Notes under the pieces: model-generated
What the model was told of the DNA's origin: nothing
What the model saw: only the letters and a program-made list of their open reading frames with translations
Databases searched by the model: none
NCBI GenBank assembly: GCA_045653705.1
Contig: JAZOMG010000006.1
Span: 25,972-89,971, forward strand
Length of the DNA: 64,000 nucleotides
Source: Eubacteriales bacterium
Lineage (GTDB): Bacteria; Bacillota; Clostridia; Oscillospirales; CAG-272
Reading direction: 5' to 3'
Made by a program: the position numbers and the translations under genes
Part shown: one piece after another, positions 3,134-56,280 of the stretch
How the letters are laid out: every line of letters begins with the position of its first letter
How positions within the stretch are numbered: position 1 is the first letter of the stretch

Positions 3134-3210
3134 AGGGCTGTCTCATTTAGCGCAGAAAAAATCCATGAAATCACGACTTCTGCATCTAAATGAAACAGCC
3201 CCTTGTTTTT
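3134..3210. terminator. Long imperfect hairpin acting as a bidirectional terminator between convergent copA and sigG
   Basis: Arms at about 3135-3157 and 3178-3200 (ggctgtctcatttag.. / ..ctaaatgaaacagcc). There is a T-run downstream on the + strand (3204-3210) and a T-run on the - strand after the hairpin. Confidence 0.6.
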
Positions 3211-3982
3211 ATACTTGCTTTTTCATATGCTCAAGAGCGCCCTTTTCAAGTCTTGATACCTGAGCTTGGGAAATTCCTATTTCGTCGGCTATTTCCATTT
3301 GCGTTTTGTTTTTGTAATATCGCATACTGATAATAGTTCGTTCTCTTTCGGTAAGCTTTTGCATAGCTTCCTTTATGGCAATGTTCTCAAGCCACAGCTC
3401 CTCTGAGCTGTTAGTGTCGCTTATCTGGTCCATAACGTATATTGAGTCTCCGTTGTCGCTGTATATAGGTTCATAAAGAGATATGGGTTCTATAATGGCT
3501 TCCATAGCGTGCACCACGGCTTCCTTTTTTTCACCGATTCTCTTGGCAATTTCCTCAACGTCAGGCTCGCCTTCCTTTTCGCGAATAAGCTCCTCTCTGG
3601 CTTGAAGTGCCCTGTATGCAAGGTCGCGTACAGAACGGCTTATCCGTATTGAATTGTTATCCCTCAGATATCGGCGGATCTCTCCTATTATCATCGGCAC
3701 AGCATAAGTGGAAAATTTAACGTCAAGGTCTGTATTAAAATTGTCTACCGCCTTTACAAGACCGATACAGCCAACTTGAAAAAGATCATCGATATTTTCC
3801 TTTCTGTTTGTAAAGCGTTGGATGATACTCAAAACCAAGCGTATATTACCGCAGATAAGCTCCTGTCTTGCCTCTTCATCTCCCGCCTTAACCTTTAATA
3901 AAAGCGTCTTTTTCTCTTCATCTGTCAGGACCTTAAGCTTTGATGTGTTAACACCGCATATTTCAACCTTGTTATAATACAT
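3209..3982 (-). CDS. sigG: Sporulation sigma factor sigma-G (forespore late)
   Basis: 257 aa. The N-terminus NKVEICGVNTSKLKVL, DDLFQVGCIGL, FSTYAVPMIIGEIRRYLRDNNSIRISRS and GISQAQVSRLEK are near-identical in pattern to B. subtilis SigG rather than SigF. Confidence 0.9.
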   Translation of the reverse strand: MYYNKVEICGVNTSKLKVLTDEEKKTLLLKVKAGDEEARQELICGNIRLVLSIIQRFTNRKENIDDLFQVGCIGLVKAVDNFNTDLDVKFSTYAVPMIIGEIRRYLRDNNSIRISRSVRDLAYRALQAREELIREKEGEPDVEEIAKRIGEKKEAVVHAMEAIIEPISLYEPIYSDNGDSIYVMDQISDTNSSEELWLENIAIKEAMQKLTERERTIISMRYYKNKTQMEIADEIGISQAQVSRLEKGALEHMKKQV

Positions 3983-27890: not shown

Positions 27891-27919
27891 TTGACTTGAT
27901 GCCTCGGATGTGGTATAAT
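27891..27919 (+). promoter_or_regulatory. Near-consensus sigma-A promoter upstream of ruvC
   Basis: TTGACT (27891-27896), 17 nt spacer, TATAAT (27914-27919), with an extended -10 TG at 27911-27912. Confidence 0.65.
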
Positions 27920-32687: not shown

Positions 32688-34016
32688 ATGGGATTTTTCG
32701 ATATAATTAAAAAAAAGAAAAGCGAACAAAAGGATATTGAAGTTTCCAAGAATGACGGAATACCCTCTGTCGCAAAAAAAATAGGCGAATATTTTAGCAC
32801 CGAGCCTCAAAAGGAAAAGGTACTTGCTCACGAGGATTTCGATGCTGCCGGTGATACCTATTATGCCAATGTGTCCGCTCATTACAAGGTAGCGCAGAGA
32901 ATACTTTTTATTTTCTTTGTATTTTTCCTTGTTTTTTCGATTATAACCAATTTCAGTGAAATAACCTATGATAACTTTTATTATTTGTTAAAGGACTTTA
33001 CAAGTGCCGCTGATGCGGGGAACAATAGCTATGAAACTCTTTCCTACGAATCGGATTCACGTCAGAATTTTGTGCTGTACAGAGGTGGAATAGCCACGGT
33101 AAGCCCATCTAAAATATCAATATTTACCGCAACAGGCAGACGTACGCTTAACGAAACGTCTCAGTTTTCTTCACCTTATGCTGCCGCGTCGGATAAATAT
33201 GTTATGTTTTTTGATACAGCGGGGAACACTTTTTCAATATATAATTCCTTTGCGCGAGTATATAGCGAGACATTGGAGCATCCCGTTAAATGCGCAAGCC
33301 TTGCTGAAGACGGCTCCTTTGCCGTTGTTACACAGGCAAGCACAGGATATTGGACAACGAGAATATATACAAAAAATTTCAATCATAAAGCAACAATTCC
33401 CTCAAGCAATTATATATTCGGCATACACCTTGACAGCGATGAGGAAAAGCTTTGTGTTCTTTCCTATGAAGCAGGCAACGGAACGGGACAGACTGTGCTT
33501 TCGGTCTATGACCTTTCTATGATGAGCGACAAAAAGGGAAATGAGATAGAGCTTGAGGAAAAGCTTACCTATGACGGAGAATTTCCTATAAAGTGCGGTT
33601 TTATAGATAACGGTTACCTGGCTTTAATAACCGATAGCCGTGTACGTATACTTGACCGAGGATATGATGTTTTCGAGGAAAGCTCTGATTTTTCGGGCGG
33701 TAGCTTGACGGGATATTATCTAGGAGACCACGGTGCGGCGGTATCTGTTGTGGATGTGTCAAGCTGTAAGGTTATTGCCTATAACGGCGAGGGAGACGAA
33801 CTTCATAACGGTAATATCTCGTACAACGTTTTGGATCTGAGCGTTTGCGACGGTATTATCTTTCTTCAGATAGACCAGGGGGTCGTAAGATTAAACCCCG
33901 ATAACGATGAAAGACAGCTTTTGAATGCCGGCAACGGAAAGATGCTGATATATAACAAGAGCACAGCGCTGGTATGCGGCGAGTCAAAGGCTGAATATCT
34001 TGTATTTAACAGTTAA
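32688..34016 (+). CDS. Hypothetical single-pass membrane protein with a large beta-rich extracytoplasmic domain
   Basis: 442 aa. A Lys-rich N-terminus, one TM helix (RILFIFFVFFLVFSIITNF), then about 340 aa rich in short beta-strand-like repeats. I recognise no catalytic motif. Confidence 0.6.
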   Translation: MGFFDIIKKKKSEQKDIEVSKNDGIPSVAKKIGEYFSTEPQKEKVLAHEDFDAAGDTYYANVSAHYKVAQRILFIFFVFFLVFSIITNFSEITYDNFYYLLKDFTSAADAGNNSYETLSYESDSRQNFVLYRGGIATVSPSKISIFTATGRRTLNETSQFSSPYAAASDKYVMFFDTAGNTFSIYNSFARVYSETLEHPVKCASLAEDGSFAVVTQASTGYWTTRIYTKNFNHKATIPSSNYIFGIHLDSDEEKLCVLSYEAGNGTGQTVLSVYDLSMMSDKKGNEIELEEKLTYDGEFPIKCGFIDNGYLALITDSRVRILDRGYDVFEESSDFSGGSLTGYYLGDHGAAVSVVDVSSCKVIAYNGEGDELHNGNISYNVLDLSVCDGIIFLQIDQGVVRLNPDNDERQLLNAGNGKMLIYNKSTALVCGESKAEYLVFNS

Positions 34017-34058: not shown

Positions 34059-34637
34059 ATGAAATTAAAAAATATTCCAAATATTTTATCGATAATAAGA
34101 ATTTGTCTTGTATTTGTTTTTGTAGCGTTGTTCTTCAACGATATGGTAATTCCTGCCCTCATTGTATTTTTGCTAGCGGGGGCAACCGATATTGTTGACG
34201 GATATCTGGCAAGACGGTATAACTGGATAACAAACCTCGGAAAGATACTTGACCCTGTCGCGGACAAGCTGATGCAATGCACAGTGCTTGTTTGTCTTTG
34301 TATAGGTAAGTATATTCCCGCGTGGTTTGCCGTTGTGTTTTTCCTAAAGGAGCTTGGAACCTTGCTTATGGGCTTTATAGTTATCAAGCGCCGAGACGTT
34401 ACGGTGGTAAGTAAATGGTACGGAAAGCTTACCGTGTGCCTTTTTTACGCTACGATAGCGGCATCTATTCTTTTTAACGATTTCTTTTCAGAGCATATTG
34501 TGCTTAATATATTAATTTATATTCCCGCCGTATTTTTCGGCATCTTCTCATTTGCAGCGTACGTGAGACATTACGCTTGGCTGAAGCACGAGGCGATTAA
34601 AAAAGGGAATTTGATAAAAGGACGAAAGGAACAGTGA
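34059..34637 (+). CDS. pgsA: CDP-diacylglycerol--glycerol-3-phosphate 3-phosphatidyltransferase
   Basis: 192 aa. CDP-alcohol phosphatidyltransferase motif DIVDGYLARRYNWITNLGKILDPVADKL. Confidence 0.85.
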   Translation: MKLKNIPNILSIIRICLVFVFVALFFNDMVIPALIVFLLAGATDIVDGYLARRYNWITNLGKILDPVADKLMQCTVLVCLCIGKYIPAWFAVVFFLKELGTLLMGFIVIKRRDVTVVSKWYGKLTVCLFYATIAASILFNDFFSEHIVLNILIYIPAVFFGIFSFAAYVRHYAWLKHEAIKKGNLIKGRKEQ

Positions 34638-34664: not shown

Positions 34665-36983
34665 ATGGTAATGTGTTCAAAATGTCACAAACGCGTTGCG
34701 GTTGTGTTTGTAAATAAAATAGATAACGGAAACAAGATATCCGAGGGCTTGTGCCTTAAGTGCGCCAGAGAGCTGGGGATTCCTGTGGATAATATGCTTG
34801 GAAATATGATGAACCAGATGGGCATATCTCCCGAACAGCTTGAAAATATGGAAGACGATATAAACAATTATATTAATGAGGCGCAAAATCTTCCTACGGA
34901 TAATGACGACCTTGAAGAGGGCGGAGCTCCCGCTATCGATCTGCCCCAGCTTTTTGGCGACGCCGGCTTTCCCCTCCCCAAAGCACCGCAACCTAACAAG
35001 GGAGATAACGGAAAGAAAAACGATAAAGGCGAAAAGACAAGAAAAAAATACAAGTTCCTTGACACATATTGCCGAAATCTGACAAGACGCGCTGAAATGG
35101 GCAAGCTTGACAGAATAATAGGCAGAGATAAGGAGCTTGACCGAGTTATACAGATACTTTGCAGACGGCAAAAAAATAACCCCTGCCTCATAGGTGAGCC
35201 GGGTGTGGGTAAAACAGCTATCGCAGAGGCGCTTGCCCAAAAGATCGCGGATGGAGACGTACCGTATAAGCTGAGAGGAAAGCAGATATATTTAGTCGAT
35301 CTTACGGCAATAGTCGCGGGAACTCAATTCAGAGGTCAGTTTGAATCTAGGATATTAGGGCTTTTAAACGAAGTCAAGGAAGCGGGAAACGTTATCCTTG
35401 TCATCGACGAGGTCCATAATATTGTGGGCGCGGGAGATGCTGAGGGTAGTGTTAACGCCGCTAATATCCTTAAGCCCGCACTGTCAAGAGGTGAGGTCCG
35501 CATAATAGGCGCTACTACGCTTAACGAATACAGGAAATATATCGAAAAGGATTCCGCCCTTGAAAGGCGTTTTCAGCCTGTAACGGTCAATGAGCCGTCA
35601 CTCTCTGAAACAGTAAAAATGCTTGAGGGTATCAAGCACTACTATGAGGAATTTCATTCTATAAAAATCCCCGATGCGGTTATAAACAGGGCGGTTGTAT
35701 TATCCGAAAGATATATAACCGACAGATATCTGCCCGATAAGGCAATTGACCTTATCGACGAAGCGGCATCAAGACTTTCTTTGAACAGCGCAGAGCTTAA
35801 TGAAACGCTTGACATAAGGGAAAAGCTGTTGAATCTGAGAGAGAGACGGGAGGCGCTGGAGGCCGCCGCGCCCACAGATGAAAAGCAGGCGCAGAAATGC
35901 TATGAAGAGATAGCGGGGATAAAAGCCGAGGAGATCAAGCTGTCCGAGAGACTTAAGGAAATAGAGCCTCAGTGTGATAACATTTATCTGACAACATCGG
36001 ATATAGCGGCGGTTATAGAGGTATGGACAGGTGTGCCCGCTATGGATATTGATGAAAATGAATTTGAACAGATAGATAAGCTTGAGAGCCGTTTAAGGGC
36101 AAGAATAATCGGACAGGATGAGGCAGTTGTTGCCGTGGCAAAGGCTATAAAGAGAAACCGCGCGGGAATTTCTTATAAGAGAAAGCCTGTTTCCTTTATA
36201 TTCGCAGGGCCTACGGGCGTGGGAAAGACCGAGCTTGTCAAAACACTTGCGGCGGATTTGTTCCATTCTCCCGAAACGCTTATAAGACTTGATATGTCCG
36301 AGTTTATGGAGAAGCATTCTGTATCAAGAATCATCGGAGCGCCTCCCGGATACGTTGGATATGATGACGCGGGACAGCTTACTGAAAAAATACGCCGCCG
36401 TCCTTACTCGGTGGTGCTGTTTGATGAGATCGAAAAGGCGCATCCCGATGTGTTGAATATTCTTTTGCAGATACTTGATGACGGAAGAATAACCGATGCT
36501 CACGGTAAGACTGTTAACTTTGAAAACACCGTTTTGGTAATGACGACCAACGCAGGCTCTGACCGCTCATCCGCAACGGTAGGATTTTCGGTACAGGAGG
36601 GCACAACGGATAACGACAATACAATGAAAGCTCTGTCGAAATTTTTGCGCCCCGAGTTTATAAACCGAGTTGACGAGATAATTACCTTTAATTCCTTGAC
36701 CGAAGACAATTTTGCAAAGATTGCCGTTATTATGCTTGAGGAGCTTAAGAGCGCCCTTGCTGAGAAGAATATACTTTTCACGTATTCTCAGCCGTCTGTT
36801 GATTATATAGCGAAAAATTCCTATTCTAAGAAATTCGGCGCGAGAAATATGCGCAGATTTATAAGAACCAACGTGGAAGATCTTATGGCTGAAAAGATAG
36901 TTTCGGACTATAACAGAACTATCGCGGGAATTGCATTAAAGTATTCCAAAAAGGAAGATAAATTAGTTATTGAGTGTATTTGA
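34665..36983 (+). CDS. Clp/Hsp100 AAA+ unfoldase, ClpE-like (N-terminal zinc ribbon, two AAA modules, ClpP-docking VGF loop)
   Basis: 772 aa. N-terminal CSKCHK..CLKCARE. AAA1 GEPGVGKTA/VIDEVH. AAA2 GPTGVGKTE/LFDEIEKAH. VGF tripeptide in SATVGFSVQ. Confidence 0.85.
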   Translation: MVMCSKCHKRVAVVFVNKIDNGNKISEGLCLKCARELGIPVDNMLGNMMNQMGISPEQLENMEDDINNYINEAQNLPTDNDDLEEGGAPAIDLPQLFGDAGFPLPKAPQPNKGDNGKKNDKGEKTRKKYKFLDTYCRNLTRRAEMGKLDRIIGRDKELDRVIQILCRRQKNNPCLIGEPGVGKTAIAEALAQKIADGDVPYKLRGKQIYLVDLTAIVAGTQFRGQFESRILGLLNEVKEAGNVILVIDEVHNIVGAGDAEGSVNAANILKPALSRGEVRIIGATTLNEYRKYIEKDSALERRFQPVTVNEPSLSETVKMLEGIKHYYEEFHSIKIPDAVINRAVVLSERYITDRYLPDKAIDLIDEAASRLSLNSAELNETLDIREKLLNLRERREALEAAAPTDEKQAQKCYEEIAGIKAEEIKLSERLKEIEPQCDNIYLTTSDIAAVIEVWTGVPAMDIDENEFEQIDKLESRLRARIIGQDEAVVAVAKAIKRNRAGISYKRKPVSFIFAGPTGVGKTELVKTLAADLFHSPETLIRLDMSEFMEKHSVSRIIGAPPGYVGYDDAGQLTEKIRRRPYSVVLFDEIEKAHPDVLNILLQILDDGRITDAHGKTVNFENTVLVMTTNAGSDRSSATVGFSVQEGTTDNDNTMKALSKFLRPEFINRVDEIITFNSLTEDNFAKIAVIMLEELKSALAEKNILFTYSQPSVDYIAKNSYSKKFGARNMRRFIRTNVEDLMAEKIVSDYNRTIAGIALKYSKKEDKLVIECI

Positions 36984-36985
36984 AA

Positions 36986-39697
36986 ATGAACGAAAAATGG
37001 TTTGGATTAAGTATTGCTGATATTGAGAAAAAGCTAAAGACCAACGCCGCCTCGGGGCTTTCCCCAAAGGCGGCTCGTTCTCGTGGAAACAGAGGGGCGG
37101 GGCATTTGTTCTATCTCCCCAAAAAATCGGTATGGCGGTTGATCTTTGAATTAATGTCGGATTTTTCTTTAGTAATACTTTTGCTTGGCGCTATATTTTC
37201 GTTGGCTTTTGAGGTGGAAGAGCGAGTAAGAGGCGGAGTTGTTCTTGCAATAGCGGTAGGGGCGATCGCGTTTTGCGGTATAATGTATTTCCGTTCGCAA
37301 AGAATGACTGAATCTCTCAATTCGTTTTTCTATCCCTCAGCAAAGGTTATAAGAGGTGGCAGACTTTACTGTGTTGATTTTCGTTCGGTTGTTGTTGGGG
37401 ACGTTATCCTACTTGAAAAAGGGGATATTCTTTGCGTAGATGCGAGAATAGTAACATCAGACGACTTAAGGGTAAAAATGCGTGTTTCTCGTGACGAGTA
37501 CGCAATTCTTGAAAAATATGCCGATGGCGTTACCGCACCAAATGAGCAAAGGGCTAAGGAGATGGCAAATATGCTCCACGCAGGCTCGGTTGTACTTTCG
37601 GGCGGAGCGCGGGCAATAGTAACGGCTGTTGGTAAATATACATATCTGGGCGCGATGACAGGCGGAATACCTTTGCCTGTATCCGATGCGCGACCGAAAT
37701 TTTTGAGCAAGCTACGCAAGCAATGCTCAAAAATCAATATGATAACCCTTATATCGGTTTTGCCCTTTAGTATGATCAGTCTACTTCTTGGTAATATGCT
37801 TTCCGAGCGGGAATCTGTTCTTTCTATAGCTTTTTTAACAGGCTTGGCTATTGCTGCCACAACTATGTCCCAGCTTACATGTGTGCTGTTGCGTATGTAC
37901 TATACTCATAAGATAAGGCGCTTGGTTATGAATGACAGTGCGGCGGTGGTTAAATCGGTAGAGGCTTTTGATAAGCTATCAGACGCAGATTATATATTTA
38001 TGCTCGACGGTTGCGCGGCTACTGACGGCGTGTATCACTATACCTGCGCACATTGCGCGGAGGGGGAAATACGAAGCTACGCCTCTCTAAATAAAACGGC
38101 TCGCAAGCTTTCGGAATACGTATCTGTATATTATTTTGCGGCAACACGAACTCTAACCACGGGAATAAGCGGAGCGGGGGATTATTTTCTCGGAATTGAA
38201 GAGTTTATAAAAAAGTGTGACGTAGACAGAGATGCCTTAAAAATAAGATGTCCTGTAAGCTCATACCTGGCGGGAAATATGACCGATGCTCCCGAGAGAG
38301 TGTTGTTTAAGGATATGGGACGCTCTTACTGTCTTAATGTGTGGAGAACACCTGTGGCACTTCAAAACTGCCGTACCGTTATGTTAGGCGGTGACGAACA
38401 ACCATTAAGCGCTGACGGAATAAAACAGCTTGCAGACGCGTGGAAAAAAAGGGAAGCAGTTGGAGAAACGCCTATTTTATTCACACTTTCTTCTGCGGAC
38501 CAAGCATACGGCACAGAATGCTTTTTAGGCGAAATTATTTTAAAAGAGGGCGTAGACCTGAATTTAAGTAAAAATATTACACGTCTTGGACGGATGGGCT
38601 GTAAGGTAGTATCCTTTTCAAGACGCGGAAATGCACCTAAGCTTCCAACCCCGCTCATTGGACGCGGCTGTGTTGTGAAAGCATCATTTGCGAGAAATAA
38701 ATTGCCTCTTACATATAATTTTGGCAGTATAGGCGCATATTCGGACTTCTCCGATGACGATATTCTGACACTTATCGATTATGCTCATTCTCAAGGAAAA
38801 AGGGTTATAGTAGTAGGCTTTAATGAAAGCGCTATGCGGATAGGCGCTAAGGCGGACGGCTTTATTACTTGCTCGGATATCTCCCCCAAGACCTTTGGAT
38901 ATTTAAATGAAGAAATACATAGCACAGAGCTGGCGGGGCAGAACGGAAGCGTTAACTGTATTCAAACCGTTAAGGAAAGAGCCGATTGTATAATAACCCG
39001 ACCTAAGAATGGCAGAGGTGGACTTGGTGGTATCTTGGCTGTGTTTACTGAGCTTCGCTCTGTATATAGAAACATATCGGACTATCTGAGATATACGCTA
39101 TGCGCGCAAATTATAAGACTGATTATAGTAGGCTGTCCGATGCTGTTGGGAGATGCCATACTTGACGCACGACACGTGTTGCTTTGCTCATACGTTCTTG
39201 ACCTTTTTGTTTTCTTCGGTTTTATGCTGAGGAAGAGTGTTTATATAAATAAAAGGTTGAAAAACTATTGCAAGGCAGAATCAATAAAGGATTATCTTAC
39301 AGGCGACAGTCCAATGCTTATTTCAAGTATTGTATCATCTGTAATAGCGGTACTGTTGCCCATAGGTGCAGACCTGTTGATAGGTGACTATGATTACAGA
39401 CTTGAGGGGCTGCTTACATCGATTTTGCTCCTACATATCACGGCATTTGTTATGATTTACTACGGTAACAATTGGAAAGAAATCAAGTACGTGTATAAAA
39501 ATAAGCTGTTGCTTATTGAGATTGCGACGGTCATTCTGCTATGGGCGCTGTGCTTTGCTTTTTCTCCCATAGGTGTTCTGTTCGGAATTGAGGGAATGAT
39601 GCCTGCGGTTTACCTATGTATAGCGGTTGTTCCGTCAATTGTATTTGCTGTGATCTTTATTCTCATAAGTCGAAAAAAGCAAATGAAGAAATTTTGA
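36986..39697 (+). CDS. P-type ATPase-like membrane protein with degenerate catalytic motifs (predicted pseudo-enzyme)
   Basis: About 903 aa. A P2-type layout is recognisable (N-terminal GLSPKAARSR, A-domain VIRGGRLYCVDFRSVVVGDVILLEKGDILCVDARIV, 10 hydrophobic segments), but TGES is absent, PEGLP reads TMSQL, DKTGT reads LDGCAAT and GDGxNDxP reads VGFNESAM. The ATG at 36986 is 2 nt after the clp stop; a GTG at 36974 is an alternative start. Confidence 0.7.
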   Translation: MNEKWFGLSIADIEKKLKTNAASGLSPKAARSRGNRGAGHLFYLPKKSVWRLIFELMSDFSLVILLLGAIFSLAFEVEERVRGGVVLAIAVGAIAFCGIMYFRSQRMTESLNSFFYPSAKVIRGGRLYCVDFRSVVVGDVILLEKGDILCVDARIVTSDDLRVKMRVSRDEYAILEKYADGVTAPNEQRAKEMANMLHAGSVVLSGGARAIVTAVGKYTYLGAMTGGIPLPVSDARPKFLSKLRKQCSKINMITLISVLPFSMISLLLGNMLSERESVLSIAFLTGLAIAATTMSQLTCVLLRMYYTHKIRRLVMNDSAAVVKSVEAFDKLSDADYIFMLDGCAATDGVYHYTCAHCAEGEIRSYASLNKTARKLSEYVSVYYFAATRTLTTGISGAGDYFLGIEEFIKKCDVDRDALKIRCPVSSYLAGNMTDAPERVLFKDMGRSYCLNVWRTPVALQNCRTVMLGGDEQPLSADGIKQLADAWKKREAVGETPILFTLSSADQAYGTECFLGEIILKEGVDLNLSKNITRLGRMGCKVVSFSRRGNAPKLPTPLIGRGCVVKASFARNKLPLTYNFGSIGAYSDFSDDDILTLIDYAHSQGKRVIVVGFNESAMRIGAKADGFITCSDISPKTFGYLNEEIHSTELAGQNGSVNCIQTVKERADCIITRPKNGRGGLGGILAVFTELRSVYRNISDYLRYTLCAQIIRLIIVGCPMLLGDAILDARHVLLCSYVLDLFVFFGFMLRKSVYINKRLKNYCKAESIKDYLTGDSPMLISSIVSSVIAVLLPIGADLLIGDYDYRLEGLLTSILLLHITAFVMIYYGNNWKEIKYVYKNKLLLIEIATVILLWALCFAFSPIGVLFGIEGMMPAVYLCIAVVPSIVFAVIFILISRKKQMKKF

Positions 39698-39711: not shown

Positions 39712-39757
39712 CCCTTGCATAGATTTAATTAGCTATACTATGCAAGGGAGATTTTAT
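39712..39757 (+). terminator. Hairpin after the ATPase-like gene; its 3' arm overlaps the ylmC Shine-Dalgarno
   Basis: CCCTTGCATAG-15 nt-CTATGCAAGGG followed by AGATTTTATT. GGGAG of the 3' arm lies 9 nt before the ATG at 39759. Confidence 0.5.
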
Positions 39758-40078: not shown

Positions 40079-40107
40079 TTGAAGTATATAAAAAAATATG
40101 GTATAAT
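40079..40107 (+). promoter_or_regulatory. Near-consensus sigma-A promoter of rpsB-tsf
   Basis: TTGAAG (40079-40084), 17 nt spacer, TATAAT (40102-40107), with an extended -10 TG at 40099-40100. Confidence 0.65.
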
Positions 40108-48904: not shown

Positions 48905-49158
48905 AACATAACAAAACCCCGTCCCATACGAATATAGGACGGGGAAAATAAACCGCGGTACCACCTAAATTTTGATTTATAAAATCAACACTCAAAAGCT
49001 ATAACGGCGCTTACCCGTACCAAGCTACTTTTTGTAATTTCACAAGGTCTCCTCCGAAGTGAAATGCAAGTTCTCTGCCTGTAACCGCTTTCAGCCGTGG
49101 CGGTCTCTCTGTAACGTAGCGTTGAAAACTGCGAGCTTCATCATAGCATTTTATTTCA
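48905..49158 (-). promoter_or_regulatory. T-box riboswitch leader, Phe specifier (UUC), upstream of pheS
   Basis: On the minus strand: AGAGAG box in Stem I, specifier loop ..AUUUCA.. (UUC plus A) closed by GAAG/CUUC, the T-box sequence AUUUAGGUGGUACCGCGG (48952-48969), and terminator CCCCGUCC-N12-GGACGGGG plus UUUU (48913-48946). Confidence 0.85.
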
Positions 49159-49165
49159 TCTTGAA

Positions 49166-49194
49166 TATTATATCACAGATGCGTTTTTATTTCA
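49166..49194 (-). promoter_or_regulatory. Sigma-A promoter of the pheS T-box leader
   Basis: On the minus strand: TTGAAA (49194-49189), 17 nt spacer, TATAAT (49171-49166). Confidence 0.6.
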
Positions 49195-49211
49195 AGAGGA
49201 TTTTCAAAAAA

Positions 49212-50867
49212 TCAGAATTTTATTATACTTTCATCCCACATATCGGGAGCGTCGTATCCCATAAGGTTAACCATAGTTGCGGCAACGTTGGAAAGACCGA
49301 AGCTTCCGTTGTCATCCTTTACTGTATAGCTGTCCTTGTAGAAGTTATCGTAAATGATGCAAGGAACGGGATTAAGAGTGTGGCTTGTTTTAGCCTTAAA
49401 GCATCCGTTTTTATCTGCCTTGGGCATACCCGTCTTTTTATCTATCTCGTACATTTCATCAGCGTTTCCGTGGTCTGCTGTAATGAGGGCAACGCCCTTT
49501 GCCTTATCAACAGCGGCGATTATTCTCGCAAGCTGAAGATCAAGAGCTTCCATAGAGCATCTTGTAGCAAGAAGCGAGCCTGTATGACCTACCATATCTC
49601 CGTTGGGGAAGTTTACGCGCAGATACTTATATTTGCCGGATTCGATACACTCTATAAGCTTATCGGTAATCTCTGCGCACTTCATCCAAGGTCTTTGCTC
49701 AAAGGGAACAACGTCCGAGGGAATCTCTATATATGTTTCAAGCTCCTCGGAGAATTTGCCCGAGCGGTTTCCGTTCCAGAAATAGGTTACGTGTCCGTAT
49801 TTCTGAGTTTCGGAAATTGCAAGCTGGTTTACACCTGCGTTTGCAAGGTATTCGCTCATAGTATTGGTTATCTCGGGAGGAGATACAAGATATCTGTGGG
49901 GTATATGAAGGTCTCCGTCATATTCAAGCATACCCGCGTATACAACAGAGGGAACTCTCTTACGGTCAAACTTATCAAACTCACCCTCAGCGGCATCAAA
50001 CGCCTTGGATATCTCAATAGAACGGTCGCCGCGGAAATTAAAGAATATAACGCTGTCGCCGTCATTGATCGTTCCAACAGGCTTGCCGTTCTCCGCAATT
50101 ACAAAAGGAGGAAGATCCTGGTCTATTACCTTAAGCTCGTCTCTGTATGTCTTTACAGCTTCTGCCGCGCTTGCGAAATATCTGCCCTCTCCGAGAACGT
50201 GGGTCTGCCAGCCTCTGTCTACCATAGACCAGTCAGCCTCGTATCTGTCCATCGTTATTTTCATACGTCCGCCGCCGGATGCGATTTTAATATCAAAGTC
50301 AGCAGAACGAAGCTCGCCTATGAACGCCTCGAAAGGTTCAATATATTCAAGCGCGCTTGTCTCGCCAACGTCACGTCCGTCTATGAGAATGTGAATGCGA
50401 ACTGTCTTTATGCCCTCGTTCTTTGCCTGAAGTATCATTGCCTTAAGATGGTCTATATGAGAGTGTACGTTACCGTCAGAGAACAGACCGAGGAAATGAA
50501 GCACGCTTCCGTTATTATTTACGTTGGAAATTATAGCCTTCCAAGTGTCGGATGCGAACATTTTTCCGCTTTCAATGGACTGAGATACAAGCTTTGCTCC
50601 CTGAGCAAATACCTGACCCGCACCGAGAGCGTTGTGACCTACCTCGGAGTTACCCATATCGTCATCAGAGGGAAGTCCAACTGCCATTCCGTGAGCCTTC
50701 AGCTTAACGGTGGGGTATTTTTCCATAAGCATATCAAGTGTGGGAGTATATGCGCCCTTAACCGCATTTGCAATAGTATCGGGGGCAATTCCAACGCCGT
50801 CCATTACTATTGTCAGTACAGGTCCGTCAACTCCGTTAAATTTAGAAAGTTTTTTCAATTCTGCCAT
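49212..50867 (-). CDS. gpmI: 2,3-bisphosphoglycerate-independent phosphoglycerate mutase (long ~550-aa form)
   Basis: 551 aa. iPGAM motifs seen: VMDGVGI, MGNSEVGHNALGAG, TADHGNAD and VGHTG. Confidence 0.9.
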   Translation of the reverse strand: MAELKKLSKFNGVDGPVLTIVMDGVGIAPDTIANAVKGAYTPTLDMLMEKYPTVKLKAHGMAVGLPSDDDMGNSEVGHNALGAGQVFAQGAKLVSQSIESGKMFASDTWKAIISNVNNNGSVLHFLGLFSDGNVHSHIDHLKAMILQAKNEGIKTVRIHILIDGRDVGETSALEYIEPFEAFIGELRSADFDIKIASGGGRMKITMDRYEADWSMVDRGWQTHVLGEGRYFASAAEAVKTYRDELKVIDQDLPPFVIAENGKPVGTINDGDSVIFFNFRGDRSIEISKAFDAAEGEFDKFDRKRVPSVVYAGMLEYDGDLHIPHRYLVSPPEITNTMSEYLANAGVNQLAISETQKYGHVTYFWNGNRSGKFSEELETYIEIPSDVVPFEQRPWMKCAEITDKLIECIESGKYKYLRVNFPNGDMVGHTGSLLATRCSMEALDLQLARIIAAVDKAKGVALITADHGNADEMYEIDKKTGMPKADKNGCFKAKTSHTLNPVPCIIYDNFYKDSYTVKDDNGSFGLSNVAATMVNLMGYDAPDMWDESIIKF

Positions 50868-50988
50868 TTCAGCCTCCTAAAAGAAATATTATTCCAATCT
50901 TATATAGTATAACTCTAAAACGATTTTTTTTCAAGTAGGAAATTAAATATTTTTTGATTTTTTGTCAATTATTTTATTATGAGCGGGA

Positions 50989-51017
50989 TTGACAGGCAAT
51001 GCGTGATATGATACAAT
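50989..51017 (+). promoter_or_regulatory. Consensus sigma-A promoter of the TerB/ATPase/helicase cassette
   Basis: TTGACA (50989-50994), 17 nt spacer, TACAAT (51012-51017), with an extended -10 TG at 51009-51010. AAAGGGGGA Shine-Dalgarno before the ATG at 51058. Confidence 0.65.
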
Positions 51018-51057
51018 ATTATAATAAGCATTTTTATTTTTATGAAAGGGGGATAAT

Positions 51058-52656
51058 ATGACCGATAAGGATAAGCTTGACGATTTTTGGGATCTTTCGT
51101 CTCTTGTTCCCCAAAAGAGTATTTCTTTTTCGCCAGTGACGGCTGTAGAGCCTGTGGAAATAACGGCAGAGCCAAATAAAAAAGACGAAGCTGACGGTAA
51201 AAATGATACGGTTATAAAAAGATACATTCCCCCATATAACGGCAATTCAAGACTTACTCTTGACGAGCAGTTTGAAAAGATAGAAAGCTATGAGCCTAAA
51301 GGGGCGCTTATTCACAGGGTTACTGTTAAAAAGAGAAAAACACAATATAACTATTACGCCGAGTTTTTAAAAAACGCAATAGAATATATTGACGTTAAGG
51401 GATATAAATGCGATTTTGTTCCGTTCTTTTCATACGTTCCTATGTATGACCAAATGACAAATGAACAGCTATCCTATTATTTTTGGTTTCGTGAGAACGC
51501 AAAAAACGGAACGTTTATAAAAACCGATTACGGTTATTTGTTTGTCTATATTTTTGAAATATTGAATTTAGGAACAAGAATGGACGTAAAGGAAGCCCAG
51601 TGTATCCTTATGTCTCTTTGGAACGAATATCAAGAGGAATATCCCGCTATTTCGGGAAAGCTTGCGGATTGGATATGTGATTACGGTCTGTTGCACCGTT
51701 TGCCGCCGCCAACCTCTGTTAGCTCTAAAATAATACAAAAGGTTCATTCCCTTAAGGAATACTTTATATGCTTGCCTAAGGACGATATTCAAAGATGTGT
51801 GTTGACGCTTATGCGCTATTGCACGTCCTATGATTACAAAACGAGCAAATTCTACACTCCACAAAACAAGCCGCTTTTTGATAAGTATATAATAGGAGCG
51901 CTATCTGTTGCTGTTAAATATTATTCGACGGATGGCAATATACTTTCGGGGTTTGACTGTAACGACAGTACCGTTTCAAGAGACGTTTATGTGGGGGCTG
52001 TTTGCGTTGCCGAGCAAAAATACCGAATAGAGGTGAGCTACTGCTCATTTTCGAGGTCTAATGAACGCAGATTTCTTATAGGAGATATTATTAAATATTC
52101 CGAGAATAAGCTGAGAGCTTATATAGGAGTAAAGACGAAAATGACGGTATATTCATTAGCGACCGAGCTGCGCGGACTTATCGATAACTATTTTGCGGAA
52201 GCCCTACCGCCCAGACGGACATCTAAGCCCGTCACCGAAAAGCACGATTACGATATTTTGTATGACGTTCCCGCAAAGCCTTTGTCGCTTTCAAATGCCG
52301 CAAAAATCGAGGAGATATCCTGGAATACAACAAATGAGCTTGTAGGCGCGTTTGAGGAAGAGAATGACAAGCAAGAGCCAATTAAGGATATATCAATACC
52401 GAAAGCACTGCCTATTGAAGATACGTTAAAGCAGGACAACGACCCATTTGAGCTTTACAGACAGGTGATTTTAGCTACGTTAAACAGTGACAAAAATGCC
52501 ATAGCTGTATTTGCTAAAGCTCAGGGTAAAATGACTGACAGTGTTGTCGAAGCTATCAACGAAATAGCCTATGACGTTTTTGGTGACCTTTTGATAGAGG
52601 ATGACGGTGTGGGAAATTATACCGTCATAGAGGATTATAAGAATTATTTTATTTGA
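51058..52656 (+). CDS. TerB-N plus TerB-C domain protein (Shango SngA-like)
   Basis: 532 aa. The TerB-N-like block is FVPFFSYVPMYDQMTNEQLSYYFWFRENAKNGTFIKTDYGYLFVYIFEILNL. The TerB-C-like tail is AVFAKAQGKMTDSVVEAINEIAYDVFGDLLIEDDG. No TM helix. Confidence 0.75.
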   Translation: MTDKDKLDDFWDLSSLVPQKSISFSPVTAVEPVEITAEPNKKDEADGKNDTVIKRYIPPYNGNSRLTLDEQFEKIESYEPKGALIHRVTVKKRKTQYNYYAEFLKNAIEYIDVKGYKCDFVPFFSYVPMYDQMTNEQLSYYFWFRENAKNGTFIKTDYGYLFVYIFEILNLGTRMDVKEAQCILMSLWNEYQEEYPAISGKLADWICDYGLLHRLPPPTSVSSKIIQKVHSLKEYFICLPKDDIQRCVLTLMRYCTSYDYKTSKFYTPQNKPLFDKYIIGALSVAVKYYSTDGNILSGFDCNDSTVSRDVYVGAVCVAEQKYRIEVSYCSFSRSNERRFLIGDIIKYSENKLRAYIGVKTKMTVYSLATELRGLIDNYFAEALPPRRTSKPVTEKHDYDILYDVPAKPLSLSNAAKIEEISWNTTNELVGAFEEENDKQEPIKDISIPKALPIEDTLKQDNDPFELYRQVILATLNSDKNAIAVFAKAQGKMTDSVVEAINEIAYDVFGDLLIEDDGVGNYTVIEDYKNYFI

Positions 52657-52671
52657 CATACGGAGAATTAT

Positions 52672-54027
52672 ATGAGTAATAGCGTTGATATTCAAAGAAT
52701 ACCAAAAAGGATATTAAATTCACTTCTTGTATCGGTGTCCGCAGGGGTTGTGCCGAGAATAGGCGCACCTTATATTGCCATAGGACGGCGGGACGAGATA
52801 AGCGCGCTCCTTTCGGACCTTGAACAAATAAACGAGGGCGGTGGAACTATGCGTTTTATCGTAGGTCGCTATGGAAGCGGAAAGAGCTTTCTTATGCAGC
52901 TTATAAGGGGATATGCCCTTGAGCGTGACTTCATAACCGCCGATGCAGACCTTTCTCCCGAACGGCGCCTGTACGGTTCATCGGGAAGCGGAGTCGCAAC
53001 GTATCGTGAGCTTATAAAGAATATGGCATCAAAAACCTCTCCCGACGGCGGGGCGCTACCTAAAATGATAGCCCGTTGGATAGAGCTTTTAAAGTCCGAT
53101 ATTATTGCAGAGGGAATATCTCCCGACAGTGAGAAATTTAATTTGAGGCTTAACTCTCTTGTTTCTCAAAAAATGAGAGAGGTTGAATTTATGGTAGGCG
53201 GCTTTGACTTTTCGCGGGTTATTACCGAATACTATAAGGCATATACTGACGGAAACGACGAAAAGAGAAGCGCGTGTCTCCGTTGGCTAAGAGGAGAATA
53301 TTCAACTAAGACCGAGGCAAGGTCAGCTCTTGGCTTTTCGGTGTCTGTAATCATAGATGACGACAACTGGTACGATTTTATAAAGCTCTGGGCGATGCTT
53401 GTAAGATTTATTGGTTACAGAGGTCTTGTTGTTTTTATTGACGAGTGTGTAAATCTTTATAAAATAACACACAGAGTAAGCCGAGAGAATAATTACGAAA
53501 AAATACTTTCAATGTTTAACGATACTCTGCAAGGAAGAGCACCAGGGCTTGGACTTATTCTTGGGGGAACACCTCAGTTTATGGATGATACCCGAAGAGG
53601 GCTTTTTAGCTATGAGGCATTGAAGAGCAGACTTTGTGACAGTCGATATGCTTTGGAAGAATATAAAAATTATATAGGACCTGTAATCAGATTAAAGCGT
53701 CTGACCGATGATGAGCTGTTCGCTCTTATTTCCCGAATTACAAAGCTTTACGCTGTAAATTACGGCGCAGAGCCGAGAATTACCGAAGATGAAATGGTAA
53801 GATTTCTTGAAATATCCCTTTCAAGAGCGGGTGCTGAACAATTGATCACTCCCCGAGAGATGCTACGCGACTATATGACGGTTTTGAATATTCTTATGCA
53901 AAATGAAAACGTGACCTTCGAACAGGTCATAAACAAAGCATTTGCTGGAAGTGAAGAACAGGGCGCGGATAACGCAGGTACTTCTAAGAAAGAGAACGTA
54001 TTTTCGGCAGAGGACATAGAATTTTAA
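52672..54027 (+). CDS. DUF2791/BREX-BrxD-like P-loop ATPase (Shango SngB-like)
   Basis: 451 aa. Walker A GRYGSGKSF, Walker B LVVFIDEC. Starts 15 nt after the upstream gene, with its own Shine-Dalgarno. Confidence 0.75.
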   Translation: MSNSVDIQRIPKRILNSLLVSVSAGVVPRIGAPYIAIGRRDEISALLSDLEQINEGGGTMRFIVGRYGSGKSFLMQLIRGYALERDFITADADLSPERRLYGSSGSGVATYRELIKNMASKTSPDGGALPKMIARWIELLKSDIIAEGISPDSEKFNLRLNSLVSQKMREVEFMVGGFDFSRVITEYYKAYTDGNDEKRSACLRWLRGEYSTKTEARSALGFSVSVIIDDDNWYDFIKLWAMLVRFIGYRGLVVFIDECVNLYKITHRVSRENNYEKILSMFNDTLQGRAPGLGLILGGTPQFMDDTRRGLFSYEALKSRLCDSRYALEEYKNYIGPVIRLKRLTDDELFALISRITKLYAVNYGAEPRITEDEMVRFLEISLSRAGAEQLITPREMLRDYMTVLNILMQNENVTFEQVINKAFAGSEEQGADNAGTSKKENVFSAEDIEF

Positions 54028-54048
54028 AAACTGTAAGGAGAAAGAAAA

Positions 54049-56280
54049 GTGACAGAAGCAGATAGAATATTTGACAGATTTCCGTCTTTCATACGTGAAT
54101 ATATTTATTCTCACTCTTGGGATAGTTTAAGACCTGTTCAGCTTGAAGCGGCGAAAACTATCTTTAATACGGAAAACAATCTGCTTTTGACGTCGGCTAC
54201 TGCCAGCGGAAAAACAGAAGCCGTTTTCTTTCCTATTCTCAGTGATATATGCGGCAGACCTGAAAACGGAATATCCGTTTTATATATCGCGCCGCTTAAA
54301 AGCTTGATAAACGACCAGTTTTTCAGAATAGAGGAGCTGCTTCGGGAAAGCGGTATAGCCGTTACTCATTGGCACGGAGACGTGTCGGCTTCCCAAAAGA
54401 AAAAGCTTTTAAAAAATCCCGAGGGTATATTGCAGATAACCCCCGAGTCATTGGAAGCGATGCTTATAAATCGTTCAAACGATATTCCCCGTATTTTTTC
54501 GGGCTTGCGTTATATCGTTATTGATGAGATACACTGTCTTACGGGAACCGACAGAGGAAATCAGATCATTTGTCAGCTAAACAGAATAGAGCGGCTTATA
54601 GGGTATTCTCCCCGGCGGATAGGTCTTTCCGCAACCGTCGGAAATCCCGAGCTGTCTGCAAAATGGCTTAGCGGCGGGTCCGACAGAAAAACCGATATTC
54701 CTATGTTTGATCAGGAAAAAATTAAATGGAGATTGGGACTTGAGCATTTCTTTATTCAAAACAAAAGCTTTGACCAAACCGCCCCGACAGTATCAAAGGG
54801 TCTTACCCCCGCGGCGGCTATGGATGCAGGGTATGAATATCTATACGATTGCGTAAAAGACAGAAAGTCCATAGTTTTTTCCAACTCCCGAGAAGAGACC
54901 GAATACGTATGCGCAACCCTCAGACAAATTGCGAAAAAGAGAAGTGATAAAGATGTTTTTCTTATTCATCACGGAAATCTGTCAGCCTCGCTACGAGAGG
55001 AAGCCGAGCTAAAAATGAAGAATGACGATAGCTTTGCCGTTACCTGCGCTACGTCAACCATGGAGCTTGGAATCGATATCGGCAGACTTGAACGCATTGC
55101 TCACGTTGATTTTCCCAACAGTGTTTCGGGATTTCTTCAGCGCCTCGGACGTTCGGGAAGAAGAGGGCAGCCCCCCGAGATGATGGCTGTATTCCGTGAG
55201 GAAGAGCCACTGCCTAACGCTCCGTTACCACAGCTTATTCCGTGGGATCTGATTCGCGCAATAGCCATTATTCAGCTTTATATTGAAGAACGCTTTGTTG
55301 AGCCGCCATCAAAAAAGCGGGAGCCCTTTAGCTTGCTGTTTCATCAAACACTTAGTGTTCTTGCCGCCTCGGGAGAGCTAAAAGCCGCTGCTCTCGCGGA
55401 GCGACTTCTTTCGCTTCCGCCTTTTGCCGACGTGTCAAGGGAAAAATATAAATCCTTACTTGTTTCGATGTTAAACAACGGTTTCTTGGAGATGACTGAG
55501 GAAAAAGGTCTTATTGTCGGTATGTCGGGAGAGCGATTGCTTAATAGCTTTAAGTTTTATGCCGTATTTAACGACAGCGAGGATTTTACCGTTAGGCGTG
55601 ATTCCGAAGAAATCGGCACAATAACAACACCGCCGCCCGTTGGTGACCGATTTGCTCTTGCGGGGCGTGTATGGGAAGTGTTAGAGCTTGACGTTCAAAG
55701 ACGACTCGTATACGTAAAGAGTGTTGAGGGTAAAATGGAAATATCGTGGCCGGGCGAATACGGAGAGATACACACTAGAATACTTGAGCGTATGAAGCTT
55801 GTATTGACGGAGAACGTTGATTATCCGTATCTTAAGGACAATGCAAGACATAGACTTCAAATCGCAAGACGTGTGTTTGAAAACGCGGGAATATCGCATA
55901 GCCCTGTTGTGCATTTGGGCGGATATACATGGTGCTTGTTCCCGTGGCTAGGAACAAGAAGCTTTCGCGCTATGCGGAAAGCCCTTGGGCGAATTTCTAC
56001 CGATTTTGGTATTTCGGGTATGGATTACGAGGGTTGTTATTATATAAAATTCCGTATGGAGCAGGGAACGCCCAAAGAGCTTCTTATGCGTCTTGACGCG
56101 GAATTTGAAGCTGTTGGAGATAACGTGCAGCTTCTTGTTGGGAAATCCGAGCTGCCGATATTTGAAAAATACGACAGATATATTCCCGCTGAACTTTTAA
56201 GAAGCTCCTATGCAGTAGACAAATTGAACGCCTTTGAAGCCCGAGGCAGAGTGGCAGAGATGCTTGAAAAATATCAATAA
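54049..56280 (+). CDS. Lhr-like superfamily-2 DEAD/DEAH-box helicase with a long C-terminal extension (Shango SngC-like)
   Basis: 743 aa, GTG start with AAGGAGA 6 nt upstream. Motif I ATASGKTEA, Ia YIAPLKSL, II DEIH, III SAT, VI QRLGRSGRRG. About 330 aa of non-core C-terminus. Confidence 0.8.
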   Translation: MTEADRIFDRFPSFIREYIYSHSWDSLRPVQLEAAKTIFNTENNLLLTSATASGKTEAVFFPILSDICGRPENGISVLYIAPLKSLINDQFFRIEELLRESGIAVTHWHGDVSASQKKKLLKNPEGILQITPESLEAMLINRSNDIPRIFSGLRYIVIDEIHCLTGTDRGNQIICQLNRIERLIGYSPRRIGLSATVGNPELSAKWLSGGSDRKTDIPMFDQEKIKWRLGLEHFFIQNKSFDQTAPTVSKGLTPAAAMDAGYEYLYDCVKDRKSIVFSNSREETEYVCATLRQIAKKRSDKDVFLIHHGNLSASLREEAELKMKNDDSFAVTCATSTMELGIDIGRLERIAHVDFPNSVSGFLQRLGRSGRRGQPPEMMAVFREEEPLPNAPLPQLIPWDLIRAIAIIQLYIEERFVEPPSKKREPFSLLFHQTLSVLAASGELKAAALAERLLSLPPFADVSREKYKSLLVSMLNNGFLEMTEEKGLIVGMSGERLLNSFKFYAVFNDSEDFTVRRDSEEIGTITTPPPVGDRFALAGRVWEVLELDVQRRLVYVKSVEGKMEISWPGEYGEIHTRILERMKLVLTENVDYPYLKDNARHRLQIARRVFENAGISHSPVVHLGGYTWCLFPWLGTRSFRAMRKALGRISTDFGISGMDYEGCYYIKFRMEQGTPKELLMRLDAEFEAVGDNVQLLVGKSELPIFEKYDRYIPAELLRSSYAVDKLNAFEARGRVAEMLEKYQ

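Follow-up and report, generated by a model that had tools for sequence, protein, structure and literature searches.

The 64,000-nucleotide stretch of DNA analysed here (contig JAZOMG010000006.1 of the Eubacteriales bacterium assembly GCA_045653705.1; hereafter the window) encodes a 903-residue protein that retains the full fold of a P2-type ATPase on a degenerate catalytic apparatus, and which we refer to as the pseudo-ATPase. We conclude that this protein very probably descends from a bacterial P2A Ca2+-ATPase of the LMCA1/YloB type and is catalytically dead, and that the family to which it belongs is a non-catalytic, clade-wide branch of the P2 ATPases in uncultured gut Clostridia. Its gene is persistently adjacent to, and usually translationally coupled with, a gene encoding a ClpE-like AAA+ unfoldase (hereafter Clp, encoded by clp). 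Taken as a whole, the explanation that we put first, while holding it only tentatively, is that of a dead P2A pump acting as the non-enzymatic membrane partner of this Clp.

The pseudo-ATPase has a complete P2-type fold

The pseudo-ATPase gene is a single uninterrupted reading frame of 903 codons that opens with an ATG at 36986. The TGA of clp occupies positions 36981-36983 and is followed by 'AA' and then by this ATG, leaving a gap of 2 nt, and we take the ATG rather than an overlapping GTG at 36974 to be the true start because orthologues begin with MNEKWF. A sequence-only reading of this DNA had proposed a protein of ~903 residues with a P2-ATPase layout that starts 2 nt after the clp stop codon, and the reading frame, the fold, the domain order and the junction sequence all bear this out. 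The sequence blocks that it quoted could all be located (GLSPKAARSR at aa 24-33, VIRGG...DARIV at aa 121-156 and AGSVVLSGGARAIVTAVG at aa 199-216), and its ten hydrophobic segments were recovered in a Kyte-Doolittle scan and coincide with ten long helices of an AlphaFold2 (AF2) model. The neighbouring genes had also been named correctly, with a double-AAA+ Clp carrying an N-terminal CxxC...CxxC ribbon upstream and a YlmC/YmxH-family protein, identified by TIGR02888, downstream.

In a Pfam scan, the pseudo-ATPase matched PF00122 (A domain/M1-M4) at 59 bits against a cut-off of 28.1 and PF00690 (N-terminal) at borderline level, with no match to PF00702 (hydrolase), PF13246 (nucleotide-binding) or PF00689 (C-terminal). 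None of the NCBIfam equivalogs for P2A, P2B, P2C, P2D, P3A or P3B pumps was reached (45-65 bits against cut-offs of 507-975), and a search with the single sequence matched solved pumps over residues ~30-305 only. A profile made from an alignment of 51 close relatives, which was also used for the AF2 model, matched the Listeria Ca2+-ATPase LMCA1 with an E-value of 4e-46 (160 bits), placing profile positions 40-627 on chain positions 38-639 (~590 positions), and scored 95 bits against SPCA and ~78 bits against SERCA and MgtA. Because this profile scores best on LMCA1, the ancestor of the family was probably most like a bacterial P2A Ca2+ pump. The AF2 model itself (pLDDT 85.4, pTM 0.81) comprises ten transmembrane (TM) helices together with actuator (A), phosphorylation (P) and nucleotide-binding (N) domains. 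When this model was compared with the PDB using Foldseek, the full-length top matches were solely P2/P3 pumps at ~15% identity, the best being the E1·Mg2+ state of Na,K-ATPase (8jfz_A; TMq 0.71, E 6e-34) and the next SERCA (4h1w; 0.70). Structure prediction and structural search therefore confirm a complete P2 fold with all three cytosolic domains.

The catalytic motifs are replaced, apart from the aspartate at the phosphorylation position

Few membrane enzymes are as well understood as the P-type ATPases, whose defining feature is a set of invariant catalytic motifs. The corresponding positions in the pseudo-ATPase were set by the alignment of the 51-member profile with LMCA1 and by a MAFFT alignment that includes E. 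coli MgtA, and the residues found there are listed in Table 1. In the M4 PEGL column, the helix-breaking Pro is changed to Ser and the Glu to Gln; Gln stands at the Glu position in 42 of 51 relatives, and Glu is retained there in the distant, tier-2 relatives described below. The N-domain motifs FxSxRK and KGxPE align, in the comparison with LMCA1, with SYLAGNMTD and VWRTPV, and DPPR, TGD and the conserved Lys are not retained in the alignments with either LMCA1 or MgtA. Column counts over the 51 close relatives show the same motif replacements throughout.

The claim that every catalytic motif is degenerate, as the sequence-only reading had put it, holds for TGES, PEGL, DKTGT, KGxPE, DPPR, TGD and GDGxNDxP, and fails for the phosphorylated Asp itself. 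D341 aligns with this residue and is invariant in 51 of 51 close relatives, where it sits inside an invariant D-G-x-A-x-T-D-G motif, the pattern in place of DKTGT being D-G-[SCA]-A-x in the close clade. In more distant family members the same position is occupied by G, N, D or P.

Canonical motifs displaced to other parts of the pseudo-ATPase were sought with regular expressions and profile alignments and none was found, the lone LTGD at aa 771 being a chance match in the M6-M7 loop, so that the degenerate positions stand as proposed with no intact equivalents elsewhere in the protein. Neither DKTGT nor GDGxND is carried by any of the best 150 50%-identity cluster representatives, and DKTGT is likewise absent from 116 further proteins found in a tier-2-seeded search and from nine metagenome loci reached via Clp. 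On the same counts, the idea that an active, ancestor-like member might sit beside clp was rejected. A CopA-like P1B heavy-metal ATPase encoded in the same window is intact (Table 1), and the motif loss is therefore specific to the pseudo-ATPase gene. The presence of this P1B pump also shows that the organism retains normal P-type pumps.

Phosphorylation by the P-type/HAD mechanism needs residues to hold Mg2+, the gamma-phosphate and the attacking water in place. These residues are gone from the pseudo-ATPase and productive phosphorylation is therefore not expected; moreover, with the loss of the residues for binding ATP and Mg2+ and for forming and hydrolysing the aspartyl-phosphate, an E1-E2 transport cycle should not be possible. 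On this comparison of residues, we infer that the pseudo-ATPase is non-pumping. The conserved D341 does give grounds for a different view, namely that the protein is a still-active ATPase or phosphatase that uses non-canonical residues around this Asp, which is after all invariant in the close clade within an invariant motif. We consider this highly improbable because the Lys and Thr of DKTGT, the Thr and Asp of TGD, the conserved Lys, both Asp residues of GDGxND and the nucleotide-binding motifs of the N domain have been replaced, the TGES dephosphorylation loop is gone, and distant members without the Asp still keep both the fold and the pairing with clp.

The family is large, intact and under purifying selection

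A word-indexed homologue search returned 642 relatives of the pseudo-ATPase. Among the 120 matches listed, the proteins are ~900 aa long and 38-100% identical to the query, have Pfam matches solely to PF00122, PF00690 or PF00689 and, where named, are annotated as 'cation-transporting P-type ATPase' from Clostridia or Ruminococcaceae metagenome-assembled genomes (MAGs). When 1.84 billion cluster representatives were searched exhaustively with the profile, 1,136 matches fell below 1e-30, and because some of these could be genuine P2A pumps we put the size of the family at 150-1,136 clusters. Its close tier (>800 bits) contains ~23 full-length 50%-identity clusters that bear the D-G...D-G motif, and its broad tier (tier 2; 290-495 bits) consists of full-length proteins with 20-27% identity to the query; it was a search seeded with one of these tier-2 members (P0229) that supplied the 116 additional proteins mentioned above.

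Scanning GTDB with one genome per species yielded 61 loci with a pseudo-ATPase, all of them in uncultured Clostridia, Eubacteriales or Oscillospiraceae MAGs, and where the isolate name tells the host, the sample came from the gut of a ruminant (roe deer, yak, sheep or water deer). No cultured or named host appeared in the homologue, cluster-member or GTDB searches, which returned only MAGs of Clostridia, Eubacteriales, Oscillospiraceae, 'Ruminococcaceae', Lachnospiraceae and Firmicutes; the taxonomic exception among the homologues is one partial sequence labelled Methanomethylophilaceae. Two MAGs, JAZOLQ01 (L039/L042) and JAFVSI01 (L055/L060), each have two contigs with a full-length pseudo-ATPase locus, reflecting either a real duplication or a mixture of strains in the bin.

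All 55 GTDB loci that are not cut by a contig end encode an uninterrupted pseudo-ATPase of 893-928 aa. When compared with an 87%-identical relative (L073) by the Nei-Gojobori method, the pseudo-ATPase gene has an overall dN/dS of 0.079, this and the following ratios being approximate because dS is high and near saturation (0.89). The lowest value of all domains is that of the A domain (0.036), followed by 0.04-0.10 for the P domain, 0.10 for the N domain and 0.06-0.10 for the TM regions (the M1-M2 block with the N-terminus, M3-M4 and M5-M10), and the neighbouring genes give 0.052 (ylmC), 0.009 (clp, C-terminal part) and 0.008 (tsf). Strong purifying selection on every domain of the pseudo-ATPase, including the 'dead' ones, is thus a robust observation, and the earlier proposal that the gene is kept under selection is upheld, as none of the 55 complete loci shows the frameshifts or decay that had been named as evidence against it.

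These data also refute the notion of a decaying pseudogene or of an artefact of annotation. The pseudo-ATPase does evolve faster than its neighbours (33-67% identity, as against 73-92% for clp), as decay would predict, but intact orthologous reading frames, the low dN/dS and the confident AF2 model leave this explanation with next to no chance of being right. Together, residual catalysis and decay are essentially excluded.

The N-terminus and the membrane core are conserved

The most conserved stretch of the family is the N-terminus, MNEKWFxLSxxEIEKKLKTNAAxGLSRKAARSR, in which W5, E14, K18, A21, A22, G24, A29, A30 and R31 are invariant. Within the membrane, Y703-x4-Q708-x2-R711 in M5 and D739 in M6 are conserved in both tiers of the family, and L-D727-A-R729-H730 at the start of M6 is near-invariant in the close tier. 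Q708 and R711 align with two Asn residues of the SSNFGN segment of MgtA, R711 falling on the position of an MgtA ion-site Asn, and D739 aligns with the M6 ion-site Asp of both MgtA and LMCA1. In established SERCA numbering, the positions of Q708, R711, D739 and Q296 are those of N768, E771, D800 and E309, respectively. R711, at a former cation-ligand position, may pair with the retained ion-site residue D739 and so provide a built-in charge in place of the transported ion, and we predict from the alignments that the membrane core is charge-neutralised by this pairing. Such a pairing would resemble that of Arg655 and Asp684, described in the plant H+-ATPase AHA2 (PMC10654040).

The family-wide conservation of these polar and charged core residues (Q296/E, Q708, R711, D739 and D727-A-R-H) argues for the main rival to our explanation, in which the pseudo-ATPase is an autonomous non-pumping membrane protein, be it a passive or gated path for cations or protons, a sensor or a scaffold, and has merely inherited its place beside clp. 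This is a possibility that we take seriously without favouring it. More than half of the protein consists of the cytosolic A, P and N domains, on which purifying selection is as strong as on the TM part; this speaks against a mere channel or membrane scaffold since neither would need such a headpiece.

The pseudo-ATPase gene is paired with a gene for a ClpE-like unfoldase

We regard the protein encoded upstream as ClpE-like because it combines an N-terminal zinc ribbon with a pair of Walker A/B modules, a short coiled coil and, at the putative ClpP-loop position, the tripeptide VGF (Table 1). Its AAA+ modules match PF00004 and PF07724, with Walker A (GxxGxGKT) at residues 177 and 515 and Walker B (hhDE) at residues 245 and 584; its middle region holds the short coiled coil, and Pfam found no match to PF02861 (Clp_N repeats). 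The CxxC...CxxC cysteines are invariant in nine Clps that partner a pseudo-ATPase, and the ClpP-loop position reads IGF, VGF or AGF in distant partner Clps. No NCBIfam equivalog cut-off is reached by this Clp, and no clpP lies within the window. In the linker that follows the ribbon, a motif, GGAPAIDLPQLF, is recognisable, with substitutions, in all 15 Clps examined from genes directly before a pseudo-ATPase, and most of the more distant zinc-ribbon Clps without a pseudo-ATPase have PGGSPVFPFG-type sequence at this position. The motif, in the form GGAPAIDLPKLF, tracks the Clps associated with a pseudo-ATPase but may simply track phylogeny, since two loci without an adjacent pseudo-ATPase (L077 and L141) keep a form of it.

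Conservation of the gene pair was followed across the GTDB loci, and clp lies directly upstream of the pseudo-ATPase gene in 58 of the 58 that have upstream sequence, the other three of the 61 being cut just before the pseudo-ATPase. The two genes are separated by 1-6 nt in 50 of these 58 loci and overlap in two more. The same adjacency is found in three close homologues on long contigs and in five of five tier-2 homologues examined, which have 20-27% identity and include loci with other genes downstream (an AraC-type regulator; DUF2975). A metagenome search that started from the Clp N-domain found 80 loci, nine of which have a pseudo-ATPase homologue downstream, and the Clps of these nine are among those closest to the Clp of the window (at least 960 bits), including those next to 749- and 763-aa versions of the pseudo-ATPase.

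These shorter, further-eroded pseudo-ATPases lie directly after clp at L081 (9317-11563; 749 aa) and L080 (9308-11596; 763 aa). The 749-aa version keeps solely PF00122 and PF00690, and the 763-aa version has no Pfam match and is recognised by hhalign (97.8% probability to the family profile) over its M3-M4/P/N region.

Our provisional interpretation, which we judge to fall somewhat short of probable, is that the pseudo-ATPase is a non-catalytic membrane partner of the upstream ClpE-like Clp, whether as anchor, adaptor, regulator or dedicated client. The protein would be made together with the unfoldase encoded 2 nt upstream. At the membrane, the Clp machine would be anchored, recruited or regulated through the large cytosolic headpiece of the pseudo-ATPase or, alternatively, would itself remodel that headpiece. 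The function under selection would presumably be protein-protein interaction or conformational signalling. In a more specific form of this proposal, which we think unlikely in its full detail, the scaffold of an ion pump would have been put to new use as the membrane adaptor or sensor of an AAA+ protease and would have kept an E1/E2-like conformational switching of its headpiece. The charged M5-M6 core would then perhaps sense ions, pH or membrane state and drive this switching, by which the zinc-ribbon ClpE-like unfoldase, together with ClpP, would be recruited to the membrane or gated there.

Several observations weigh against a partnership with Clp. The region ecfAA'T-truA-DUF5711-(cvpA/pgsA)-clp-X-(ylmC)-rpsB-tsf is syntenic as a whole, so that the adjacency to clp could be inherited gene order rather than a reflection of function. 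More distant zinc-ribbon Clps (~850-890 bits, largely from human gut) are followed by an unrelated ORF of ~335 aa, and the two fairly close Clps of L077 and L141 have no adjacent pseudo-ATPase. The two proteins are also under very different constraint, Clp having 73-92% identity and a dN/dS of 0.009 as against 33-67% identity for the pseudo-ATPase, and do not behave as a tightly matched evolving pair. It is because of the syntenic neighbourhood, the occurrence of this type of Clp outside genomes with a pseudo-ATPase, and the differing rates of evolution that we hold the proposed partnership at the strength given above.

The autonomous membrane protein considered earlier draws on some of the same observations, as the synteny takes in the functionally unrelated genes truA, pgsA, rpsB and tsf, and Clps of the same type occur without a pseudo-ATPase in related lineages. 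It fits less well with a pair that stays adjacent, mostly at 1-6 nt, despite changed downstream genes (L067, L068 and L071) and identities of 20-27%. Of the link to Clp and proteolysis that had been suggested from the sequence, the adjacency and the 1-6-nt spacing have thus proved persistent down to 20-27% identity, and what weakens it is that the synteny is general and that similar Clps exist without a pseudo-ATPase.

The ORF of ~335 aa, found in many metagenome contigs among L084-L153 (for example L094, 9300-11267, and L109, 9311-11193), is tightly coupled to clp and has no family match, and an AraC-type regulator comes next. In these lineages, Clp may have this ORF product as its own, different partner. 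That it is a remnant of the pseudo-ATPase was ruled out with hhalign (probability 0.1%).

Neighbouring genes and sporulation

The gene order in the window is ruvC-methyltransferase-ecfA-ecfA'-ecfT-truA-DUF5711-pgsA-clp-pseudoATPase-ylmC, followed by rpsB-tsf, all on one strand and with short gaps. The best promoter-like site is far upstream, at 27891, and a second one precedes rpsB, at 40079; between these two sites we found no convincing terminator and no evident promoter dedicated to the pseudo-ATPase. DUF5711 is upstream of clp in every examined locus that reaches far enough, and a CvpA-family membrane protein is present in most lineages other than that of the window. Both are also upstream of clp in two lineages without a pseudo-ATPase, as judged by ORF size only, and the conserved core of the cluster may be DUF5711-(CvpA)-Clp.

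Between the pseudo-ATPase gene and ylmC is a hairpin with a minimum free energy of -17.4 kcal/mol (z = -3.7 against shuffles), whose 3' arm holds the ylmC Shine-Dalgarno sequence (AAGGGAG) and which has no more than a weak U tract behind it. The hairpin could act in partial termination or in controlling the translation of ylmC.

The gene downstream bears on another rival explanation, in which the pseudo-ATPase is a sporulation-specific factor that arose from a YloB-like sporulation Ca2+-ATPase and acts with YlmC/YmxH, for example as a membrane scaffold of the forespore or mother cell. The ylmC/ymxH gene is directly downstream here and in about two thirds of related loci, the closest solved relative of the pseudo-ATPase is a Firmicute P2A Ca2+-ATPase, and the window encodes SigG, so that the host lineage is probably an endospore former. 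YloB-type pumps are tied to sporulation (PMC12999246), which we also count in favour of this explanation. We nevertheless consider it improbable, because ylmC is a variable member of the cluster that went undetected in roughly one third of the 61 loci, rpsB standing directly after the pseudo-ATPase gene in ~17 of them, and because the gene sits within a housekeeping cluster and has no evident promoter of its own. The sporulation link drawn in the sequence-only reading therefore survives in that ylmC adjoins the gene here and the lineage encodes SigG, and gives way over those loci in which ylmC was not detected. Elsewhere, the window contains a defence-island-like run of four genes (Table 1).

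Table 1. Positions of the pseudo-ATPase, its parts and other features in the window
Feature	Position	Strand	Basis or remark
CopA-like P1B heavy-metal ATPase, two HMA domains	651-3125	+	TGES, CPC, DKTGT, LTGD and GDGIND intact
Sporulation sigma factor SigG	3209-3982	-	NF006071, 422.7 bits against cut-off 372
DUF5711 gene	32688-34016	+	Conserved upstream gene
pgsA	34059-34637	+	Conserved upstream; in other lineages a CvpA-family gene additionally or instead
ClpE-like class-I AAA+ unfoldase (Clp/Hsp100), 772 aa	34665..36983	+	Pfam, motif inspection
Clp N-terminal C4 zinc ribbon (C4, C7, C30, C33) and GIPVDNMLGN helix	34665..34790	+	Near-invariant across partners
Clp linker motif GGAPAIDLPQLF, aa 86-97, in ~100-aa low-complexity linker	34920..34955	+	Alignment
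Clp VGF tripeptide, aa 639-641	36579..36587	+	Matches ClpP-docking loop consensus [LIV]-G-[FL]
Pseudo-P2-type ATPase, 903 aa	36986..39697	+	Full pump fold, degenerate catalytic apparatus
N-terminal segment, aa 1-57, MNEKWF...KTNAASGLSPKAARSR	36986..37156	+	Alignments; borderline PF00690
Actuator (A) domain core, aa 117-237	37334..37696	+	PF00122; lowest dN/dS of all domains
TGES-equivalent RDEY, aa 169-172	37490..37501	+	Family consensus [RK]-[DEN]-x-Y, Glu not conserved
M4 PEGL-equivalent MSQL, aa 294-297	37865..37876	+	Q296 on ion-binding Glu position
DKTGT-equivalent D341-G-C-A-A-T-D347-G348 (DGCAA, aa 341-345)	38006..38029	+	Lys, Thr, Gly and Thr gone
N-domain homologue, aa 361-520	38066..38545	+	LMCA1 alignment, AF2 secondary structure; FDSDRK and KGGPD positions replaced
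GDGxNDxP-equivalent GFNESAMR, aa 611-618	38816..38839	+	Solely the following 'KAD' (D624) kept
Family-specific insertion (~25 aa, P domain), aa 635-657	38888..38956	+	Sole low-confidence stretch of the model, pLDDT <50
M5-M6 core: Y703, Q708, R711 (M5); L-D727-A-R729-H730, D739 (M6)	39092..39202	+	Alignments
11-bp perfect hairpin CCCCUUGCAUA...UAUGCAAGGG	39712..39748	+	Within the 61-nt pseudo-ATPase/ylmC spacer
YlmC/YmxH-family PRC-barrel protein, 93 aa	39759..40040	+	TIGR02888, 62.2 bits against cut-off 44.2; PF05239
ORF, 617 aa, first gene of defence-island-like four-gene run	run 49059-56280	+	No Pfam/NCBIfam match
TerB_N/TerB_C protein, defence-island-like run	51058-52656	+	
BrxD-like ATPase, defence-island-like run	52672-54027	+	162 bits, below cut-off 350
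DEAD/DEAH helicase, defence-island-like run	54049-56280	+	

Comparison with known systems

Literature searches on pseudo- or inactive P-type ATPases, which did not cover the 2010 superfamily survey of Chan et al., returned nothing bacterial and solely the alveolate chimeras of guanylate cyclase and P4-ATPase, and we found in them no published description of the pseudo-ATPase family. In an open-questions review of the field (PMC10654040), the terms 'degenerate' and 'inactive' are absent, the lone match to 'pseudo' is part of a species name, and the new P6 family that is named there is catalytically intact. The pseudo-ATPase is a member of the P-type superfamily by homology that falls outside it by every functional criterion tested, unlike any characterised subfamily.

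That a large bacterial clade, with hundreds of 50%-identity clusters, should discard pump chemistry and yet keep a 900-aa architecture under strong purifying selection is unexpected, and it means that the current annotation as 'cation-transporting P-type ATPase' mis-assigns transport to many genomes of gut Clostridia. The family is also a natural experiment that separates those parts of the pump fold needed for structure from those needed for catalysis. The partners and substrates of ClpE are poorly characterised, and it is not known to have a membrane partner; were the proposed partnership with Clp true, the pseudo-ATPase would supply one and would represent a new way of reusing pump scaffolds for regulation. 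If its more specific adaptor or sensor form were true, Clp partners would gain a class not known before, and a bacterial pseudo-P-type ATPase would for the first time have a role assigned to it.

Among characterised pumps, the P2A Ca2+-ATPases (LMCA1, PDB 9euq/6zhf; B. subtilis YloB; SERCA) share with the pseudo-ATPase the same fold, domain order and ten TM helices, and homology to them is recognisable over the N-terminus, the A domain, M1-M4 and the P and N domains. The pseudo-ATPase keeps the A-domain GDxxxxxxGDxxPxDxR and the M6 Asp of these pumps but differs from them in its replaced catalytic motifs (bar the Asp), in the Arg at an ion-ligand position of M5 and in the insertion of ~25 aa in the P domain. 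The P3A H+-ATPases (AHA2/Pma1) likewise have an M5 Arg and an M6 Asp in the membrane core, the Arg being in a putatively matching registry. However, all catalytic motifs are intact in P3A pumps, which transport protons, and the pseudo-ATPase profile scores best on P2A and not on P3A pumps.

A scaffold derived from a P-type ATPase within a protein of non-transport output is also found in the alveolate guanylate cyclases (Plasmodium GCalpha/GCbeta and Toxoplasma GC), in which the scaffold is P4-ATPase-like. In some of these, the P4-ATPase-like domain is without catalytic residues. The alveolate domains belong to eukaryotes, derive from P4-ATPases (flippases) and form one part of a fusion with a cyclase, whereas the pseudo-ATPase is bacterial, of P2A origin, stands alone and is paired with the gene of an AAA+ unfoldase. 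That unfoldase, for its part, resembles the ClpE of Bacilli (B. subtilis, Lactococcus and Streptococcus) in having a zinc ribbon in place of Clp_N, two AAA+ modules, a short coiled coil and a candidate ClpP-loop tripeptide, and it differs from ClpE by its ~100-aa low-complexity linker with the GGAPAIDLPKLF motif.

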